From Eubacteriales bacterium (GTDB lineage Bacteria > Bacillota > Clostridia > Oscillospirales > CAG-382): DNA of 64,000 bases. Position 1 is the first letter of the stretch. Every line of letters begins with the position of its first letter. The notes under the pieces were generated by a model. That model was not told the DNA's origin and ran no database searches. It saw only the letters and a program-made list of their open reading frames with translations. The stretch covers positions 137,668-201,667 of the forward strand of contig JAZNPH010000050.1 of NCBI GenBank assembly GCA_045589515.1, read 5' to 3'. This document shows, in pieces, positions 24,786 to 60,782 of this stretch. The translations under genes were made by a program, and so were the position numbers.

Positions 24786-26252
24786 ATGTTTAAAAGCGTA
24801 TTTTCCCGTATGCTTACGGCTTTCACCGTGATCCTGCTTTTGTGTATCACGCTGTTGGTCTTTGTGGTCGCCTCGGGCTTGTTTCAGGAAAGTCTGGAAA
24901 AAGAGCGTTCCGAATTGGGAGTTGCCGCCAACGAGATCGGCTTCTTCTTAGAGGAAATGCAACGCATTTCCGCCTTGCCCGCTCCCTTGCTTTTGCAAAG
25001 TGAAAGCTTTCATTCCAACCTGATCGGTATTGCCGATCTGACGGAAGCGGATATCTCCGTCCTGCGTATGGACGGTGTTGTAGCCGCCACCTCTGCCGAT
25101 CGCTGGGGGGTAGGGAAGCAAATGCTTTCCAAGGAGACCGTGATGCGGATCATGGAAAACGATGCCGCTTATATTGTCAGCAATCTGGACGGTGTTCTGG
25201 AACGCAAACAGCTTAACAGCTTTGCCATCATCGGAGATGCTAAGGGTTCTCCTGCTTACCTCATTGTGGTGACCAGCGAAAAGGCCTTGAATTCCGACGT
25301 AGCCAACTCCGTCACCGAGCGTATGGTGGTGGTGGCCATCTGGATCTTCTTTGCCGCTATGATCATCATTTTCCTGATCTCCCGCCGTATCACCGATTCC
25401 ATCAAGGTGCTTTGCTCCGCCGCACGTGAATACGCCCAGGGGCGGTTTAACATTCGCGTCAAGGTGAACGGGCAGGATGAGATCACGGAGTTGACCACGG
25501 CCTTCAACAACATGGCAAGCGGCCTTGCCAAGCTGGAGGAAAACCGTAACACCTTCATCGCCAACGTGTCCCACGACCTACGCACCCCTATGACCACCAT
25601 TTCCGGCTTTGTGGACGGCATTTTGGACGGCACCATTCCTCCCGAGGAGCAGCAGCGGTATCTGCAGACCATTTCCGCAGAGGTGCACCGCCTTTCCCGC
25701 TTGGTAAACACCCTTTTGGAGATCTCCCGTTTGGAATCCGGCAAGGGGATGAACACAAGAGACTTTAACCTCACCGAGACGGCAAGGCAAGTCCTCATTT
25801 CCCTGATGGGAAAGATCGAAGCCAAAAAGCTGGACGTTGAGTTTGAGGGAGGGGACGAGGACGTATTCGTCCTGGCTGACCCGGATGCCATCCACCAGGT
25901 GATGTATAACCTGCTGGACAACGCCATCAAGTTCACTCAGGAGAAGGGCACCATTTCCATCGGCATCACCGCCAAGAGCAAAAAGGCCTTGGTGCGGGTG
26001 CGGAACACCGGGGAGGGGATCCCCGAGGAAGAGATCTCCCACATTTTTGAACGCTTTTATAAGTCCGACCGTTCCCGCGGACTTGACAAAACGGGAACAG
26101 GCCTTGGACTTTACATCGTCAAGACCATTTTGGAAAAGCACGGGGAGGAGATCTCCGTGGAATCGGTTGTCTCGGCTTATACGGAGTTTCGCTTTGGATT
26201 GTCCTTGTCCGCGGGGAAACCAAAAGCCAAGGGCGGAGACCTGATGGATTGA
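24786..26252 (+). CDS. Sensor histidine kinase (TM-sensor-TM-HAMP-HisKA-HATPase) with no adjacent response regulator
   Basis: H-box FIANVSHDLRTPMT, N/G boxes LLDNAIKF and GTGLGLYIV, and two TM segments. Confidence 0.85.
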   Translation: MFKSVFSRMLTAFTVILLLCITLLVFVVASGLFQESLEKERSELGVAANEIGFFLEEMQRISALPAPLLLQSESFHSNLIGIADLTEADISVLRMDGVVAATSADRWGVGKQMLSKETVMRIMENDAAYIVSNLDGVLERKQLNSFAIIGDAKGSPAYLIVVTSEKALNSDVANSVTERMVVVAIWIFFAAMIIIFLISRRITDSIKVLCSAAREYAQGRFNIRVKVNGQDEITELTTAFNNMASGLAKLEENRNTFIANVSHDLRTPMTTISGFVDGILDGTIPPEEQQRYLQTISAEVHRLSRLVNTLLEISRLESGKGMNTRDFNLTETARQVLISLMGKIEAKKLDVEFEGGDEDVFVLADPDAIHQVMYNLLDNAIKFTQEKGTISIGITAKSKKALVRVRNTGEGIPEEEISHIFERFYKSDRSRGLDKTGTGLGLYIVKTILEKHGEEISVESVVSAYTEFRFGLSLSAGKPKAKGGDLMD

Positions 26253-26279: not shown

Positions 26280-27611
26280 ATGAACGATTTTAAGAACGAC
26301 CGTGACGATCAGAATACGGAGTTGACCCCCGAAGGCAACCAGACTCCCCATCAAACTCCTCCCGCCTACGTTTGGGACGGCAAGCAGGGCGGCAACCGCC
26401 GCAGAGGGAAAAAGCCCTTTATGTTCTTTGTGGTAGCCGTGGTGTGCTTGGCGTTGACGGCGGCCATCTGCATTCCCACCGTCCTGTACGCATTGGACGA
26501 TAGTCACATTGCAGACGGTTCGGCGGATTCTTCCGTGGGCGGTACCTCCGAAGGAGAGCAGTCCCGCGAGGAGACCTCCTTTGACGTCAGCGAAACGGTG
26601 ACCATCACCGACACCCCCTTCTTGGAGGAAAACGCGCTGACCCGGGTGTACAAAAAGTGCCAGGGCTCTTGCGCTACTATTTACGTAGAGATCGGCACCA
26701 CCGGCTATTCCATCGGCAGCGGCTTTGTCCTCAGCGAGGACGGCTATTTGGCAACCAACCAGCACGTTGTGGACGACGGCACCAAGGTAACGGTGATCTT
26801 CTATGACGGCACCGAGTATGAGGCACAGGTGGTAGGGGAAGACCCCATCCGCGACCTTGCGGTGTTGAAGATCGACGCCAAGGACCTCACTCCCTTGGAG
26901 CTGGGGGATTCCGACTCTCTTTCCGTGGGGCAGACCACCATCGCCATCGGCACTCCCTACGATCAGGAGCTGGCAGGCACCATGACCATGGGTATCATCA
27001 GCGGTCTGAACCGCGGGATTACCATCGAAAACGATGCGGGCGTGGTCACCAAGACCATGCATCTCATCCAGACGGATACCCCCATCAACCCCGGTAACAG
27101 CGGCGGCCCGCTGATCAACATGGCCGGCCAGGTGGTCGGTATCAACTCCCTGAAGCTGATCAATGAATACGAGGGCATCGGCTTCGCCATTCCCATCAAC
27201 TCCGCCGTGGAGATCTTCAACCAGCTCATTCAGTACGGTGAGGTGGTACAGGATCCCGAAAACGATTTCGTTATCGAAAATCCCCGCCTTGGCGTACAGG
27301 TATACGAGCTGGAGGCAGGCCTTGAGGCCTTCCGCATCAAGCCTCGCTGCGAGTATCCCAAGGAGGGCGTTCTGGTGGCTTCCGTAGAGCCCCACACTGC
27401 CGTCTACGCCGCAGGTCTGGAGCTGTACGACATCATCACCGACTTCAACGGCACTCCCATCAAGGGTCTGCAGGATCTTACCAATGCCTTGAAGCAGTAC
27501 CGCGCAGGAGATGAGGTGACCATCACCGTGTTCTCCTTCTCCCGCAACTTCTCTGAGGGCGAATACAAGACCTTGAAATTCATTTTGGATTCCGCTGAGG
27601 CCATCGGCTAA
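26280..27611 (+). CDS. HtrA/DegP-family trypsin-like serine protease with a PDZ domain
   Basis: ...GSGFVLSEDGYLATNQHVV..., ...TDTPINPGNSGGPLIN..., an N-terminal TM segment and a C-terminal PDZ-like region. Confidence 0.85.
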   Translation: MNDFKNDRDDQNTELTPEGNQTPHQTPPAYVWDGKQGGNRRRGKKPFMFFVVAVVCLALTAAICIPTVLYALDDSHIADGSADSSVGGTSEGEQSREETSFDVSETVTITDTPFLEENALTRVYKKCQGSCATIYVEIGTTGYSIGSGFVLSEDGYLATNQHVVDDGTKVTVIFYDGTEYEAQVVGEDPIRDLAVLKIDAKDLTPLELGDSDSLSVGQTTIAIGTPYDQELAGTMTMGIISGLNRGITIENDAGVVTKTMHLIQTDTPINPGNSGGPLINMAGQVVGINSLKLINEYEGIGFAIPINSAVEIFNQLIQYGEVVQDPENDFVIENPRLGVQVYELEAGLEAFRIKPRCEYPKEGVLVASVEPHTAVYAAGLELYDIITDFNGTPIKGLQDLTNALKQYRAGDEVTITVFSFSRNFSEGEYKTLKFILDSAEAIG

Positions 27612-54593: not shown

Positions 54594-55859
54594 TTAAAAT
54601 AGGAAATCAAATTCTACGTCGTAAATGTTGACGGTGTCACCCTCGTCGATGCCCGCATCCTCCAGGGCTTGGATCACGCCCTTTTCCCGCAAAAACTTCT
54701 GGAAGTACTGCAGGGATTCGTAGCTGTCGAAATCCGTGCGGCCGATGAGCTTCAGCAGCCATTCGCCCTTCACGAAGAAGGTGTTGCCGTTTCTGGTCAC
54801 GTCCACGGAATAATCTTCCTTTTCGGGCTCGGGGGCAATATACTCCGGCTCGTAAATGCGGATGGGAGGGAGCTTGTCCAGCAATGCGGCGGTGGCCTTC
54901 ATCAGCTCGGATACGCCCTCGTCGATCTCACCGGCGATGAGGAACAGCTGCCAGCCCTTTTCTTCTGCAAAGGCCTTGATCTCTTGGTACTTCTCTTCGT
55001 CGTAGCCAAGGTCGATCTTGTTGCCCACCAGAATCTGAGGACGGCTTGCCAGCTCGGGGCTGTATTTTTCCAGCTCCGCGTTGATCTTCTTGATGTCCTC
55101 CAAAGGATCGGGACGTTCCGACCCGGAAATATCAAAGATGTGCAGGATCAACCTGCAACGGTCGATATGCCGCAGGAAATCGTGACCCAGCCCCGCACCC
55201 TCGGAAGCACCCTCAATAAGTCCGGGAATGTCCGCGGCCACAAAGGTCTTGTCGTACACGGAGATCACACCCAAATTGGGAGAAAGGGTGGTGAAATGGT
55301 AGTTGGCCACCTTGGGCCTGGCAGAGCTGATCACGGAAAGCAGGGTGGACTTGCCCACGTTGGGGAATCCTGCAAACCCTACGTCTGCCAGCATTTTCAG
55401 CTCCAGCGTCAGGTTCTTTTCTTCACCGGGAGTGCCCTCCTTGGCAAAACGGGGCACCTGGCGGGTAGCCGTGGCGAAATGGGTGTTTCCCCAGCCGCCT
55501 CTGCCGCCTTTTGCAACCACGAAGCGGTCGCAATCCCCCATGTCCTTGATCACCAAGCCGGTCTCCGCATCGCGGATCACCGTTCCGGGAGGCACGGGGA
55601 TCTCCAGATCCTTGCCGTATTTCCCCATGAACTTCTTTGCGGCACCGTCGGCACCGTTCTCCGCCACGAACTTGCGGCGGTACTTGAAGTCCAGCAGGGT
55701 GTTCTTTCCTTCGTCGGTGACAAAGACGATGCTGCCGCCCTTGCCGCCGTCTCCGCCGTCGGGTCCTCCGTGGGAGACGTATTTTTCTCGGCGGAAGGAC
55801 ACGGCACCGTTGCCGCCCTTGCCCGCCTTGACAAAAATATTTACCTTATCAATAAACAT
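54594..55859 (-). CDS. obg: GTPase Obg/CgtA
   Basis: MFIDKVNIFVKAGKGGNGAVSFRREKY...GGPDGGDGGKGG..., G1 GFPNVGKST, and a C-terminal OCT/TGS-like domain. Confidence 0.95.
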   Translation of the reverse strand: MFIDKVNIFVKAGKGGNGAVSFRREKYVSHGGPDGGDGGKGGSIVFVTDEGKNTLLDFKYRRKFVAENGADGAAKKFMGKYGKDLEIPVPPGTVIRDAETGLVIKDMGDCDRFVVAKGGRGGWGNTHFATATRQVPRFAKEGTPGEEKNLTLELKMLADVGFAGFPNVGKSTLLSVISSARPKVANYHFTTLSPNLGVISVYDKTFVAADIPGLIEGASEGAGLGHDFLRHIDRCRLILHIFDISGSERPDPLEDIKKINAELEKYSPELASRPQILVGNKIDLGYDEEKYQEIKAFAEEKGWQLFLIAGEIDEGVSELMKATAALLDKLPPIRIYEPEYIAPEPEKEDYSVDVTRNGNTFFVKGEWLLKLIGRTDFDSYESLQYFQKFLREKGVIQALEDAGIDEGDTVNIYDVEFDFLF

Positions 55860-55899
55860 ATCGATCCCTCGATTCATGCCCCCGTGGGCATATCGTGAT

Positions 55900-55937
55900 G
55901 AAAAAAGCCCTTTCAGTCTGCTACGATTGAAAGGGCT
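55900..55937 (-). terminator. Intrinsic terminator between rpmA and obg
   Basis: AGCCCTTTCA/TGAAAGGGCT 10-bp stem, followed on the minus strand by TTTTTT. Confidence 0.6.
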
Positions 55938-55974
55938 GTTCTTCGTTCTTTTTTCGTAAAACCGTTTTTAGGAA

Positions 55975-56262
55975 TTACTGTGCGTCGGCAGAGAGAACGG
56001 AAACGCTCTTTCTTCCGCCTGCGATGGGCTTGAATTTGACAACGCCGTCAACCAGAGCAAACAGGGTGTCATCAGAGCCACGACCTACGCCTTCACCCGG
56101 ATGGATGGAGGTGCCGCGCTGGCGAACGATGATGTTGCCGGCGATAACGGACTGGCCGTCCTGCTTCTTCACGCCAAGTCTCTTGGATTCGCTGTCACGG
56201 CCGTTCTTGGTAGAACCAACGCCTTTTTTATGAGCAAAGAACTGCAAAGACAATCTAAGCAT
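55975..56262 (-). CDS. rpmA: 50S ribosomal protein L27 with an N-terminal propeptide
   Basis: MLRLSLQFF|[23 protein letters not shown].... The 9-aa extension before AHKKG is typical of Prp-processed L27. Confidence 0.95.
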
Positions 56263-56275
56263 GATTACGTACTCC

Positions 56276-56584
56276 TTACTTTGAATTTTTTTGCACCCGC
56301 ACGTATGTCGGGTACTGCTTTTGTAGCTGCCTCAGCTCTTCGTAGAAGACGGAGATCAGCTTGCTGGCTTCCTCGCAGGGCTTGCACAAATGGTAGGAGA
56401 CCTGTGCCTCCTCACCCTCGGCAGAAACCTCTGCCTCTGCACCGAAGGCTTCTGCGCCGTTAACCACGAAATTGGTCATGGCACTCACCGCGGCACAGAC
56501 GATATCCTCGCCCGCCTCGGCATAGCCTGCGTGCCCCGAAAGGGAAAACCCGGAAAAATCGCGATCAAAGGTGGCTCGGATCAT
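56276..56584 (-). CDS. prp: Ribosomal-processing cysteine protease Prp
   Basis: 102 aa between rplU and rpmA. ...[19 protein letters not shown]... contains the conserved His/Cys dyad context. Confidence 0.85.
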
Positions 56585-56590
56585 AAGATC

Positions 56591-56902
56591 TTAACCGTTG
56601 ATAGCAACGATCTGCAACTTGGTGTAGGGCTGTCTGTGACCGAGATGTCTCTTCTCGTTCTTCTTGGGCTTGTAAGTCATTACGTGGATCTTCTTGCCCT
56701 TGCCGTTCTTAACCACAGTTGCGGTAACGGTTGCGCCTTCCACAACGGGAGCGCCAACCTTAAAGCCGTCTGCGCCGGAAACAGCCAGAACCTGGTCGAA
56801 GGTGTAGGTGGTGCCTTCCTCAACGCCCAGCTTTTCAACGAAGATGATATCACCCTCGGAAACCTTGTACTGCTTACCGCCGGTCTGAATTACTGCGTAC
56901 AT
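56591..56902 (-). CDS. rplU: 50S ribosomal protein L21
   Basis: [25 protein letters not shown]...[19 protein letters not shown]... Confidence 0.95.
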
Positions 56903-57153: not shown

Positions 57154-59298
57154 ATGAAAAAGAGGATATTCGCGTGCATTTTTTTGGTTATAGTGTTGCT
57201 TGCGGCCATGCCCTTGACCGCTTTTGCTTACGGACACAGCGCCACTACCCCCTTGCCCGACGGGGCATATAAGTCCTGGTCTCAAGAGGATCCCCGTTGG
57301 ACGGATGTTAAGATCGGGGTTGATCCTTGGACGGATTCTCAGGGCAAGCGTCACGAGGACGAGACCATCGGCCACGCGGGCTGTCTCATCAGCTCCATGG
57401 CTATCCTCGCCCGTGCTTATGGCCTGACGCTGGCAGACGGCACCGCCATCGATCCCGGCACGTTGGGAAAGGCGATGTACGACGACGGCAGCTGCAAGTA
57501 TGTGAATTACAAGGGCGCTTCCAAGTACGAAACGGCCTTTGATATCCTGATCCCCGGGGTGAAGTTCTACAAGACCATGTTCCCCTCCAACCCCGTTTCC
57601 ACCATCCGTACCCTGCTTTCCGACCCGGATAAGGAGTATATCATCATTGCCGCGGTGAAGAACGGCGGGCATTACGTAGCGGTGGACTGCGTGGTGGACG
57701 GCGATGTGGCGATCTGTGACACGGGCTATCCAAAGACCCGACTTTCGGAATATACTGTCCTCTGTCTGCTGGTGTATACCGTGGACGAGGAATACGTGCA
57801 ACAGCCTGTTCAGCCCTCCGGCGCACCCATTTGGCTGGTGACGGAGGCATCGGGTATCAAGATCCGTTCCGGTCCCGGGCTGGATTACGACCGTGTGGGG
57901 GCATATAAGGTAAACACCGAGATCGAAGTGACCGAGACGGTGGAGGCCGACGGCTACCTGTGGGGCAAGACGGAAAAGGGCTGGTGCGCCCTCCGTGCTT
58001 TGGACGGCTCCGATGAATTCTGCAAATGTCTGACGGTAATCAAATATCCCGTTTCCTACCATCTTGCAGGGGGCAGCGACGGGCCTGACGCTCAAGAAAA
58101 GACAGCGGGTGAGCCCCTTACCCTTTCCGATGTGATCCCCAAGAAGGAGGGACACCGCTTCCTGGGCTGGTCTGCAGACCCATCTGCCATTTCCGCTACC
58201 TACGCCCCCGGCGCTACGTATGGGGTGGACGAGCCCTTGACCTTGTACGCCGTCTGGATGGAGGAAAAGGCGATCTACGCCTATGGGATCGACGTATCCT
58301 CCCATCAGAAAGCGGTGGATTGGCAGGCGGTGGCCGACAGCGGGATCCGTTTCGTGCTCCTCCGCGCAGGCACCTCCAACGGAAAAGATACGAATTTCGA
58401 GGCAAATTACGAAGGAGCCAAGGCCGCAGGGCTTTTGGTGGGCAGCTATTTCTTCACTTACGCCGTGACGGAGGAGGAAATGCTGGCCGATGCAAAGCTG
58501 TTCGAGGAATGGCTTGCAGGCAAGGAGTTTGAGCTTCCCGTTTACGTGGACGTGGAGACGGAGGAGCAAAGCAAGCTTCCCGCAGGGGAGCTGACCCGCC
58601 TGACACAGGTGTTCCGCACCTATATCCTGGATGCGGGCTATTACTGCGGTGTTTACGCCAGCTACAATTGGTTCGATTGGTTCCTGGATAAGGATGCCTT
58701 CGGCGGCAAGGAATCCCTCTGGATGGCAAAATGGTCTTCCAGCGGTACTCTTTCCCAGAACCTCAGCGGCGATTGCGGGATGTATCAGTATTCCGAGACG
58801 GGCTCCGTCCCCGGTATTTCCACCACGGTGGATCTCAACGTGTGCTACGCCGATCTTCCTGCCATTGTGGCAGAGTATGATGAGCATATCAAAAACAACG
58901 TTTCTCCCTTGCCGGATTCAGGGCTGACCATCTACGATGACATCCTCACAGGCGGCAGAGAGCGGATGACCGTGGCGGAATGGAAGCTGTTGTTCGACGG
59001 GGAAGTGACCTTCACCGACGGCATGGGGAACACCCTGGCAGATAACGCCGTGGTGTCCACGGGAGACACTGTCCTTTGCGGCGAGACTGTCTACACCGTT
59101 GCCGTGAAGGGCGACCTTGACGGGGACGGAAGAGTGACCGCGGCGGACTACATGCTGACCAAGATGTACGTTATGGGACGGTATCGCCTCACCCCGGAGG
59201 CCTACTACGCCGCTCTGGTCCAAGGGGACAGGGTGAACAGCGTAAGCTACGTGATGATCAAGCGCCACGTGCTCGGGACTTATTCTCTCTATAAATAA
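57154..59298 (+). CDS. Secreted multidomain cell-wall hydrolase: papain/C39-like peptidase domain, SH3b, Listeria-Bacteroides repeat, GH25 muramidase and a dockerin-like module
   Basis: Signal peptide. ...GHAGCLISSMAIL...GGHYVAVD... is a Cys/His pair. YPVSYHLAGG...GHRFLGWSADP...LYAVW is an InlB-type repeat. YGIDVSSHQKAVDWQAV...GSYFFTYA is GH25. The C-terminus is GDLDGDGRVTAADYMLTKMY...YVMIKRHVLG. Confidence 0.85.
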   Translation: MKKRIFACIFLVIVLLAAMPLTAFAYGHSATTPLPDGAYKSWSQEDPRWTDVKIGVDPWTDSQGKRHEDETIGHAGCLISSMAILARAYGLTLADGTAIDPGTLGKAMYDDGSCKYVNYKGASKYETAFDILIPGVKFYKTMFPSNPVSTIRTLLSDPDKEYIIIAAVKNGGHYVAVDCVVDGDVAICDTGYPKTRLSEYTVLCLLVYTVDEEYVQQPVQPSGAPIWLVTEASGIKIRSGPGLDYDRVGAYKVNTEIEVTETVEADGYLWGKTEKGWCALRALDGSDEFCKCLTVIKYPVSYHLAGGSDGPDAQEKTAGEPLTLSDVIPKKEGHRFLGWSADPSAISATYAPGATYGVDEPLTLYAVWMEEKAIYAYGIDVSSHQKAVDWQAVADSGIRFVLLRAGTSNGKDTNFEANYEGAKAAGLLVGSYFFTYAVTEEEMLADAKLFEEWLAGKEFELPVYVDVETEEQSKLPAGELTRLTQVFRTYILDAGYYCGVYASYNWFDWFLDKDAFGGKESLWMAKWSSSGTLSQNLSGDCGMYQYSETGSVPGISTTVDLNVCYADLPAIVAEYDEHIKNNVSPLPDSGLTIYDDILTGGRERMTVAEWKLLFDGEVTFTDGMGNTLADNAVVSTGDTVLCGETVYTVAVKGDLDGDGRVTAADYMLTKMYVMGRYRLTPEAYYAALVQGDRVNSVSYVMIKRHVLGTYSLYK

Positions 59299-59341: not shown

Positions 59342-59548
59342 CTATCTGTTGATCTGGGGATTGTCCGTGCGTTCCAGAAGGTAATCTACCGAGACGTCAA
59401 AAAAGTCTGCAATCCGAATGAGCATGGCGTAATTCGTCTCACGTTCTCCCGTTTCGTAACGGCTGATGGTGTGCTGGGAAACGGAAAGCTCCATGGCCAG
59501 CCGCACCTGGGAGATCCCCCGCTCTTTGCGTAATTGCTTCAACCGCAT
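59342..59548 (-). CDS. Small XRE-family HTH transcriptional regulator
   Basis: MRLKQLRKERGISQVRLAMELSVSQHTISRYETGERETNYAMLIRIADFFDVSVDYLL, 68 aa. Confidence 0.8.
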   Translation of the reverse strand: MRLKQLRKERGISQVRLAMELSVSQHTISRYETGERETNYAMLIRIADFFDVSVDYLLERTDNPQINR

Positions 59549-59613: not shown

Positions 59614-59634
59614 TATATCCCAATATGGGATATA
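59614..59634. promoter_or_regulatory. Perfect 9-3-9 palindrome, a candidate operator of the adjacent XRE repressor
   Basis: TATATCCCA-ATA-TGGGATATA, 66 nt upstream of the XRE start on the minus strand. Confidence 0.4.
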
Positions 59635-59791
59635 AAAGGCAAGAGAAAAGCCGCAAGAAAGCGGCTGATTCTCTATCTTTTTATCTTCGCAATGAAAAGT
59701 TTTTGAAGATTTTCAAGAAACTTTTTTCAAAAAGTTTCTTGAATGGGGCTTGGGGCAACGCCCCACCATCGCCCCCTCCTTCTTGTCGCCC

Positions 59792-60568
59792 TTACACAGC
59801 GGCGACGGTCTTGTTCTTCAACCGCAGATTGTCGGCGATCATGGCGATGAACTCGGAGTTGGTGGGCTTCCCGCGGGAGTTCTGCACCGTGTACCCGAAG
59901 AAGCTGTTGAGCACGTCCAGATCGCCCCGATCCCAAGCCACCTCAATGGCGTGGCGAATGGCACGTTCCACCCGTGAGGAGGTGGTACCGTAGGACTTGG
60001 CAACGGAGGGATAAAGGATCTTGGTCACGGAGTTGATCACATCGGTGTTCTCCACCACCATGATGATGGCGGTGCGGAGATATTGATACCCCTTGATGTG
60101 GGCAGGCACACCGATCTGATGGATGATCTTGGTGACTTGCGCCTCCAGATCGCTGTCCTCGCGGGAGGGAAGATGTCCGCCAATACGGGGCTTTCCTTTT
60201 TCGCCGATGCGGCGGATGCGGTCGCCTAAGGTGTTGTAGTCCAAGGGCACCAGCATACAGTAGGCCGCCCCTGCCTCCACGCATTCCTCAAATACCCCGG
60301 GATTGTGGAAGGAGGAGATCATGATGAAGGCTGGGTAAGCATCCCCCAACTGCTTTTTGGATTCCCGGATCAACCCCACACCGTCGATCTTCCCTAGGTG
60401 CATATCCGAGATCACCACCCCGGGCTTCAAGCGGGTGATCTTCACAAGGGCATCCTGCCCGTCGGCGGCCTCGCCGATGACGTTGATCCCCTGACGGCGG
60501 AGGATCTGTGTACATTGGGTACGCAACTCGTCGTTGCCTTCTGCGATCAATACTCTGACTTTTTCCAT
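59792..60568 (-). CDS. spo0A: Sporulation master regulator Spo0A, with an atypical receiver pocket
   Basis: The C-terminal effector domain is near-canonical (...[21 protein letters not shown]...[15 protein letters not shown]...[17 protein letters not shown]). The receiver has E10-G11 instead of DD and V107 instead of the conserved Lys. Confidence 0.9.
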
Positions 60569-60765
60569 GACCTGTATGTTTCTCCTTCAAGATAAGATTT
60601 GTTGATGGGTATATTCTACCATTTTCCAAGCGGAAATTCAATATTTTGACCCTAAAAAAACCACGCAAAAAGGCAACTTTCGTATCCTAATAATCGACAC
60701 TCCCGGTCGAAAACGGCGGTTCTTCCTGTATAATTTCCCGATTTCGACGGCAAAAAATGACAATT

Positions 60766-60782
60766 TGTCGAATTTTGTCGAA
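60766..60782 (+). promoter_or_regulatory. Two tandem consensus Spo0A boxes (TGTCGAA) 10 bp apart
   Basis: TGTCGAA at 60766-60772 and 60776-60782. Related half-sites are GGTCGAA (60705-60711) and TTCGACG (60743-60749). They lie in the spo0A / DUF4430-gene divergent intergenic region. Confidence 0.45.

Follow-up and report, generated by a model that had tools for sequence, protein, structure and literature searches.

A Spo0A with a candidate pseudo-receiver in an uncultured genus of Oscillospirales

All endospore-formers are considered to use Spo0A activated by phosphorylation of an aspartate (PMC11210211). The same rule, that Asp phosphorylation of Spo0A starts sporulation, is stated in a study of Clostridioides difficile, in which phosphorylation at D56 was shown on Phos-tag gels and the substitutions D10A, D11A, D56A, S86A and K108A each strongly reduced sporulation (10.1101/2022.02.07.479450). 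Here we describe a spo0A gene whose product departs from this pattern in the receiver domain. The gene lies in a stretch of 64,000 nucleotides of an uncultured Oscillospirales bacterium (contig JAZNPH010000050.1, positions 137,668 to 201,667, assembly GCA_045589515.1), and "the window" below refers to the whole of this stretch. The source genome, labelled G000, is a draft metagenome-assembled genome (MAG) of 2.40 Mb in 98 contigs and is 98% complete.

Compared with the canonical Spo0A of Bacillus subtilis, Geobacillus stearothermophilus and C. difficile (1qmp/1dz3, 5wq0, 1fc3 and 1lq1), the window protein has the same architecture of a receiver (REC) followed by Spo0A_C, exceeds the equivalog cut-off and is single-copy. 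Its DNA-binding domain is 61-64% identical to theirs, and 0A boxes in its own promoter and a sigma F/E/G/K cascade in the genome are further common points. The differences are in the receiver, where the second acidic residue is replaced by Gly, the Lys by Val and D10 by Glu, and where the aromatic switch position is Cys. In addition, there are sister species without the phospho-accepting Asp, and spo0A does not adjoin spoIVB.

By analogy, the closest mechanistic precedent would be WhiI of Streptomyces, in which the Lys and one Asp are missing and phosphorylation plays no part in control (PMC4125116). Both proteins miss the Lys and one of the Asp pair, keep the putative phospho-Asp, and are orphan sporulation regulators with a degenerate pocket conserved in the lineage. 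However, WhiI has an effector of the NarL/FixJ type, belongs to an unrelated developmental programme (sporulation septation) and to another phylum, and acts as a heterodimer with BldM, whereas only one Spo0A-type protein is encoded in the present genome.

The aspartate-less receivers (ALRs), such as RitR, ChxR and HP1043, are another comparable group, since their receiver fold is under selection although they do without phosphotransfer, and since the second acidic residue is the one most often lost (PMC4395418). ALRs are defined by the loss of the phospho-Asp, whereas the window protein keeps it and only its sisters with Asn at position 55 would qualify; moreover, most ALRs still have the Lys (70% basic; PMC4395418), the residue that this clade lost first. 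A supplementary table of the same paper counts, without discussion, 7 Asp-less proteins among 391 REC~Spo0A_C architectures (PMC4395418). This count was the sole trace when the literature was searched for atypical, pseudo-receiver or phosphorylation-independent Spo0A, and no description of such a protein was found.

The phosphorylation pocket and its history in the genus

The receiver was aligned by phmmer with that of G. stearothermophilus Spo0A (1dz3), and the alignment was gapless around the key motifs, pairing IAEGNDEL with IADDNREL, ISDMHL with LLDIIM, IMISSF with IMLTAF and CMLVPLD with FILKPFD. The pocket quintet is E10, G11, D55, S85 and V107, compared with the canonical D, D, D, T/S and K, and the five codons were read directly from the DNA. 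The AlphaFold2 model, made from 36 homologues, gave a mean predicted local distance difference test (pLDDT) score of 82.8, with 80-96 in the receiver. Its receiver contains five strands and five helices in the canonical b1-a1-b2-a2-b3-a3-b4-a4-b5-a5 order, in which E10 and G11 directly follow b1 (residues 5-9), V107 directly follows b5 (103-106), and D55 and S85 are the last residues of b3 (51-55) and b4 (80-85), respectively. Foldseek matched the receiver half to the receivers of Spo0A, Spo0F and CheY with template modelling (TM) scores of 0.88-0.90, and the C-terminal half to the Spo0A C-domains 1fc3/1lq1 with scores of 0.88-0.96.

These positions agree with most of what the first-pass annotation, which had been made from the letters alone, proposed for the pocket. 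The motifs quoted there are all present in the translation, and its by-eye alignment is not shifted, as the HMMER alignment and the AlphaFold2 model agree on all five positions. The replacement of the conserved Lys by Val107 is borne out by alignment, model and the codon GTG, and D55 and S85 are retained, with the codons GAT and TCC at the aligned and modelled positions. The change of the Asp pair D10-D11 to Glu-Gly was right only in part: E10 and G11 do occupy those positions, but position 11 was Ser in the ancestor and the pair is D-S genus-wide.

The canonical quintet is incomplete throughout the clade described below, with both the second acidic residue and the Lys missing. The window protein has D55 and is not an aspartate-less receiver. 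It resembles the WhiI-like atypical regulators in that the gene is an orphan and that 24 of 24 clade members have neither the Lys nor the second acidic residue.

The aromatic switch position, three residues before the Lys position, is C104 in the window protein. It is an invariant Cys in 120 of the 120 close homologues, and Cys is also found there in many other Oscillospirales Spo0A (LCLLKP and YCMLKP motifs). This position is Phe in G. stearothermophilus Spo0A and corresponds to Tyr106 in CheY.

Two groups were seen among these 120 database homologues. The nearer group (76-100% identity) has E10, one of G/S/C/A at position 11 and never Lys at 107, and the farther homologues (approximately 70-75% identity) have D-S...D...A/S...K. 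The relatives are labelled Ruminococcaceae or Oscillospiraceae bacterium at NCBI, and several of the contigs are from ruminant gut MAG sets. The lineage is a single large genus of Oscillospiraceae/Ruminococcaceae from animal guts, uncultured and with genome sizes of 1.2-2.4 Mb, and 34 of 36 congeners yielded a Spo0A. The Lys is missing in seven species with full-length Spo0A (G000, G035, G036, G007, G024, G030 and G023) and apparently also in G008, where Spo0A is a fragment cut by the contig end, and in G001, where it is near-identical to that of G023. The remaining species of the genus have D-S...K. The Spo0A of these Lys-bearing congeners is 67-76% identical to the window protein overall and approximately 91% in the DNA-binding domain, and the 0A-box layout and the minimal two-component repertoire are the same. 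It differs in that D10 and K107 are kept, no Asn55 occurs and the Thr/Ser position is Ala in most members; the second acidic residue is already missing.

A maximum-likelihood tree was obtained by a quick tree search from 65 sequences, namely 24 Lys-less and 41 Lys-bearing ones (including the outgroup L018). The 24 Lys-less sequences form one side of a single branch, with a support of 95 in the Shimodaira-Hasegawa-like approximate likelihood ratio test (SH-aLRT), or 87 when the five pocket columns were left out. K107 was lost once, in the ancestor of a monophyletic subclade, and one change on the tree explains the distribution. The absence of the Lys is a property of a whole clade (24/24) and not of a single protein. 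Position 11 varies in the clade (G/S/C/A).

Within the Lys-less clade, E10 is invariant (24/24), N12-D/E13-E14 is conserved, and S85 is kept in all members. Position 107 is occupied by eight different residues (V/M/T/I/S/A/Q/L) and appears to be a free site. Of the 24 sequences, 16 retain D55, and in the other 8 (e.g. G023 and G030) the phospho-acceptor Asp is replaced by Asn, a distribution requiring 4-5 separate changes. In contrast, Asn is absent from this position in the 41 Lys-bearing sequences, 3 of which (one being the outgroup L018) have Glu.

A comparison with 80 species of neighbouring Oscillospirales genera showed that the Lys is kept in 76, the Asp in 74 and the full canonical quintet in 49, the second acidic position being much looser than the Lys and the Asp. 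G11 alone is unremarkable, because the second Asp is already Ser across the genus and loose in the order, and E10 is a conservative change. The distinctive feature of the clade is the loss of the Lys followed by the repeated loss of the Asp. Independent lesions were also observed in Oscillospirales outside the genus: the Lys is Met or Ser in L030 and L062 and Arg in L069 and L090, and the phospho-Asp is Asn in L057 and L077 and Glu in L018, L060, L065 and L081.

Selection on the receiver, the output side and the sporulation genes

The ratio of nonsynonymous to synonymous substitution rates (dN/dS) was determined from close pairs of Lys-less species only, as the synonymous rate (dS) was saturated in the deeper ones. 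It was 0.015-0.064 in the receiver, at a dS of 0.8-1.3, and about equal, 0.012-0.045, in the DNA-binding domain. The per-column entropy of the receiver was 0.69 in the Lys-less clade (36 of 125 columns invariant) and 0.68 in the Lys-bearing clade (33 invariant), indicating that the receiver is not decaying. The low dN/dS and the equal entropy argue for a selected folded module of which only the pocket has been released. Compensation for the lost Lys by a gained basic residue was also considered and was rejected, as none of the 12 clade-diagnostic substitutions introduces a new basic residue.

On the output side, the DNA-binding domain is almost invariant in the clade. The whole genome contains 212 exact 0A boxes, and only two pairs of them lie within 60 base pairs (bp) of each other, one being the pair upstream of spo0A. 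Exact 0A boxes approximately 200 bp upstream of spo0A were found in all 29 genus loci with upstream sequence, including those of Asn55 species. Another exact box is located at -72 of the gene for a SpoIIE-like protein (G000:C41:8703-10913, + strand).

Sporulation was assessed from approximately 13 marker genes, a part of the core set, and all genomes are MAGs of uncultured organisms. The inventory of the window genome, which the first-pass annotation had named as a check, showed that the sporulation set is kept over these markers, including the sigma F/E/G/K cascade. SpoIVA scored 668 bits, over its cut-off, spoIIGA and sigE are adjacent, and the spoIIAA-spoIIAB-sigF operon is intact. SigG exceeded one curated cut-off, SigK, a SigH-like sigma factor and SpoVAD are present, and so are SpoIIIAE-, SpoIID- and SpoIVB-like proteins. 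The SpoIIE-like protein of 736 amino acids (aa) scored 161 bits against a cut-off of 491, with its length and C-terminal PP2C region kept, and SpoIIGA (105 against 210 bits), SpoIIIAE (105 against 247) and SpoIID (112 against 235) were also under their NCBIfam cut-offs. Since equal scores were obtained for the Lys-bearing congeners, these low values are attributed to divergence of the lineage and not to decay.

In the Lys-less genomes, the tested sporulation genes are intact open frames. Of the 37 genus genomes, 32 had SpoIVA over its cut-off; these included all Lys-less genomes of sufficient completeness, that of the Asn55 species G023 among them, and SpoVAD followed the same pattern. SpoIIIAE, SpoIID and SpoIVB are also kept in the Lys-less congeners, again including G023. 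Within the clade, dN/dS of SpoIVA and SpoVAD was 0.05-0.16, and therefore these structural spore genes have been under selection since the loss of the Lys.

Approximately 80 bp upstream of spoIIAA-spoIIAB-sigF ends a gene for a 427-aa regulator with helix-turn-helix (HTH) and TPR-like regions, in the style of RNPP/Rgg proteins (G000:C95:19972-21255, - strand). It is a possible peptide-sensing input to the first forespore sigma operon.

Readings of the altered pocket

We consider it fairly probable, on the sequence evidence, that the window protein is a genuine single-copy Spo0A with a WhiI-like pseudo-receiver, the activity of which is no longer gated by His-Asp phosphotransfer. This is the most economical reading, because the spore genes and the constrained receiver are kept, position 107 drifts and the Asp is repeatedly replaced by Asn. 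Sporulation in the clade would then probably be switched on without the classic phosphorylation signal. The pseudo-receiver had already been suggested by the first-pass annotation, and it gains support from the 4-5 changes of Asp to Asn within the clade and from their absence in Lys-bearing congeners, which suggest, at the level of sequence, independence from phosphorylation.

The history may have been as follows. With Ser already standing at the second acidic position, the ancestor of the subclade would have undergone two changes, the loss of the conserved Lys and the substitution of D10 by E. The phospho-acceptor Asp would then have become dispensable and been replaced by Asn several times. 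The DNA-binding half is expected to act as in other Spo0A, recognising 0A boxes including the tandem pair in its own promoter, and strong selection would maintain the receiver as a folded module for regulation or dimerisation. Its retention is probably due to dimerisation, to inhibition of the DNA-binding domain or to the binding of a partner, rather than to phosphotransfer. The activity of Spo0A would more probably depend on its amount (transcription and autoregulation through 0A boxes), on a receiver-binding partner, or on both. A stronger form of this reading is that His-Asp phosphotransfer no longer has any part in the entry into sporulation, with Spo0A constitutively competent as WhiI is, and controlled by its own level (0A-box autoregulation, sigma-factor control) or by a ligand or protein that binds the pseudo-receiver. 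We regard this form as tentative, and its chance as slightly below even.

Several observations weigh against a receiver free of phosphorylation. The species keeps D55, S85 and an acidic residue at position 10, and D55 is also present in two thirds of the clade, so that the Asp may still have a role. In the CheY literature, receivers with a mutated Lys can still be phosphorylated, and the loss of the Lys alone is therefore no proof that phosphorylation is lost. There is no matching loss of a kinase, since the sole orphan HisKA kinase (24786-26252) is kept in Lys-less and Lys-bearing species alike. The failure to find a phosphatase of the Spo0E type across the genus does not discriminate either. 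Finally, the organisms are uncultured, and sporulation is predicted here from marker genes.

These points bear on the most serious alternative, which we nevertheless hold to be rather unlikely, that Spo0A is still phosphorylated, by way of a non-canonical pocket, in the species keeping D55, including the present one. In that case, E10 and the nearby D13/E14 would bind Mg2+, the reaction would perhaps be slow or depend on a dedicated partner, and the Asn55 tips of the tree would be secondary, lineage-specific escapes. The retention of D55 in 16 of 24 members and of S85 in all, the invariant E10 and the conserved N12-D/E13-E14 are consistent with such a pocket. However, position 107 varies freely among eight residues with no compensating basic residue, and Asn55 arose 4-5 times, only in this clade and with SpoIVA, SpoVAD, SpoIIIAE, SpoIID and SpoIVB kept. 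In addition, D11A and K108A each cripple Spo0A of C. difficile (10.1101/2022.02.07.479450).

The kinases can be read in the same light. The window genome has ten HisKA kinases, nine of which adjoin a response regulator and one of which is an orphan. The orphan is a HAMP-HisKA-HATPase protein of 488 aa (24786-26252, + strand), and its gene is followed by that of an HtrA-like Trypsin_2-PDZ protease (26280-27611, + strand). It is conserved in 5 of the 5 genomes examined, which would suit a dedicated partner, with full-length orthologues in four congeners of the Lys-less, Asn55 and Lys-bearing kinds (73, 64, 47 and 48% identity). The orthologue with 64% identity belongs to an Asn55 species, and the kinase must therefore have another substrate. 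Its partner is probably a conserved orphan OmpR-type regulator (G000:C93:19033-19362), and the split arrangement of kinase and regulator is reminiscent of a CssS/WalK-like envelope-stress pair.

Differential loss of sporulation kinases was considered as a signature of lost phosphorylation and was rejected, because the orphan kinase is kept in all three kinds of species. Differential loss of Spo0E was rejected likewise, as a search of the 37 genus genomes, with a model that is short and weak, revealed no Spo0E-type phosphatase. Gene content gives a signature neither for nor against phosphorylation, and the whole genus has a minimal two-component repertoire.

Less probable still, and in our view improbable, is that the lineage consists of former spore-formers, in which Spo0A is drifting or has been co-opted for genes outside sporulation and the relaxed pocket is a symptom. 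Spo0A has non-sporulation targets in other Firmicutes, no member of the lineage has been cultured, the genomes are small (1.2-2.4 Mb), and the SpoIIE, SpoIIGA, SpoIIIAE and SpoIID scores are under the NCBIfam cut-offs. Nevertheless, these low scores are identical in Lys-bearing congeners, the tested frames are intact with SpoIVA and SpoVAD constrained as above, and the whole receiver is as constrained as in the Lys-bearing clade. Moreover, the only congener without SpoIVA and SpoVAD, G021 (97% complete, 1.4 Mb), was also searched for Spo0A and none was found. G021 looks like a member of the genus that has abandoned sporulation entirely, and its joint loss of the three genes indicates that, in this genus, loss of sporulation takes spo0A along, in agreement with the published association of spo0A with the sporulation gene signature at 98.9% (PMC8340488).

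An artefact of misalignment, of assembly or binning, or of a paralogue is very improbable even though the genome is a 98-contig draft MAG, because alignment and structure model agree on the pocket, the protein is the sole match over the equivalog cut-off with the synteny of its congeners (rplU-prp-rpmA-obg), and proteins identical or nearly identical to it are encoded on dozens of independent metagenome contigs from different samples.

If a Spo0A with a pseudo-receiver is indeed what this clade has, a lineage with selected sporulation genes and a Spo0A lacking the Lys, the second acidic residue and, repeatedly, the Asp would be a natural exception to the phosphorylation rule. The series of evolutionary intermediates, from D-S...K to E-x without K and then to Asn55, could reveal the way in which a master switch of development is rewired. 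The presence of spo0A in gut MAGs, which is used to predict sporulation, would say nothing on how or whether the signal input works.

The spo0A locus and its neighbours

The coordinates of the features are collected in Table 1. The open reading frame is intact, starts with ATG and is preceded by a GGAG ribosome-binding site. The Pfam model Spo0A_C matched residues 145-248 over its full length (1-104 of 104, 1e-45), and Response_reg (PF00072) matched residues 6-118 (1.5e-14, 54.5 bits against a cut-off of 30.2). For the NCBIfam equivalog TIGR02875 (Spo0A), which has a cut-off of 200 bits, the score was 267.8 bits with an alignment over model positions 1-261 of 262, and no other protein of the genome exceeded that cut-off, the 12 further matches being ordinary response regulators.

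Table 1. Features of the spo0A locus (window coordinates)
Feature	Position	Strand	Remark
spo0A coding sequence	59792..60568	-	258 aa; sole Spo0A of the 2.40-Mb genome
Receiver (REC) domain, residues 4-125	60194..60559	-	canonical (beta/alpha)5 order in the model; TM 0.88-0.90 to Spo0A receivers 5wq0/1qmp
Spo0A_C DNA-binding domain, residues 145-248	59825..60136	-	61-64% identity to solved Spo0A C-domains; 88/116 positions invariant in the clade
Codons E10 GAA (60539-60541) and G11 GGC (60536-60538)	60536..60541	-	two acidic-pocket positions after beta1
Codon D55 GAT	60404..60406	-	phospho-acceptor position; kept here
Codon S85 TCC	60314..60316	-	Thr/Ser switch position
Codon V107 GTG	60248..60250	-	replaces the conserved Lys; next residue P108 invariant
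Two exact predicted 0A boxes, 10 bp apart, -214 and -204 from the spo0A start	60766..60782	+	TGTCGAA (+) = TTCGACA on the gene strand
Sigma-70-like promoter TTGAAT-17-TG-TAGAAT, ~45 nt upstream of the spo0A ATG	60613..60641	-	consensus match only
Terminator-like hairpin downstream of the spo0A stop	59649..59666	-	consensus match only

The promoter match and the terminator-like hairpin suggest that spo0A is monocistronic, and no kinase gene adjoins it. The rplU-prp-rpmA-obg genes (54594-56902, - strand) lie on its downstream side, as in the congeners, and spo0A thus sits in the neighbourhood where Bacilli carry spo0B. A spo0B gene was sought between rpmA and obg at the window locus and none was found, these genes being contiguous with no room between them.

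Two genes are inserted between spo0A and rplU. One, the promoter region of which contains a perfect inverted repeat of 9 bp (59614-59634), encodes a 68-aa XRE-type HTH protein (59342-59548, - strand), and the other a 714-aa GH25 lysozyme (57154-59298, + strand) with SH3, Listeria-Bacteroides repeat and dockerin domains. The XRE gene was considered as a clade-specific partner of Spo0A and was rejected as a weak link, since it is absent in G023 and other small HTH genes stand there in the Lys-bearing G012. The pair of XRE and GH25 genes was seen only in the core Lys-less species G000, G035, G036, G007, G024 and G030, and neither in G023 nor in Lys-bearing congeners; at the XRE position, G012 has two different small HTH genes.

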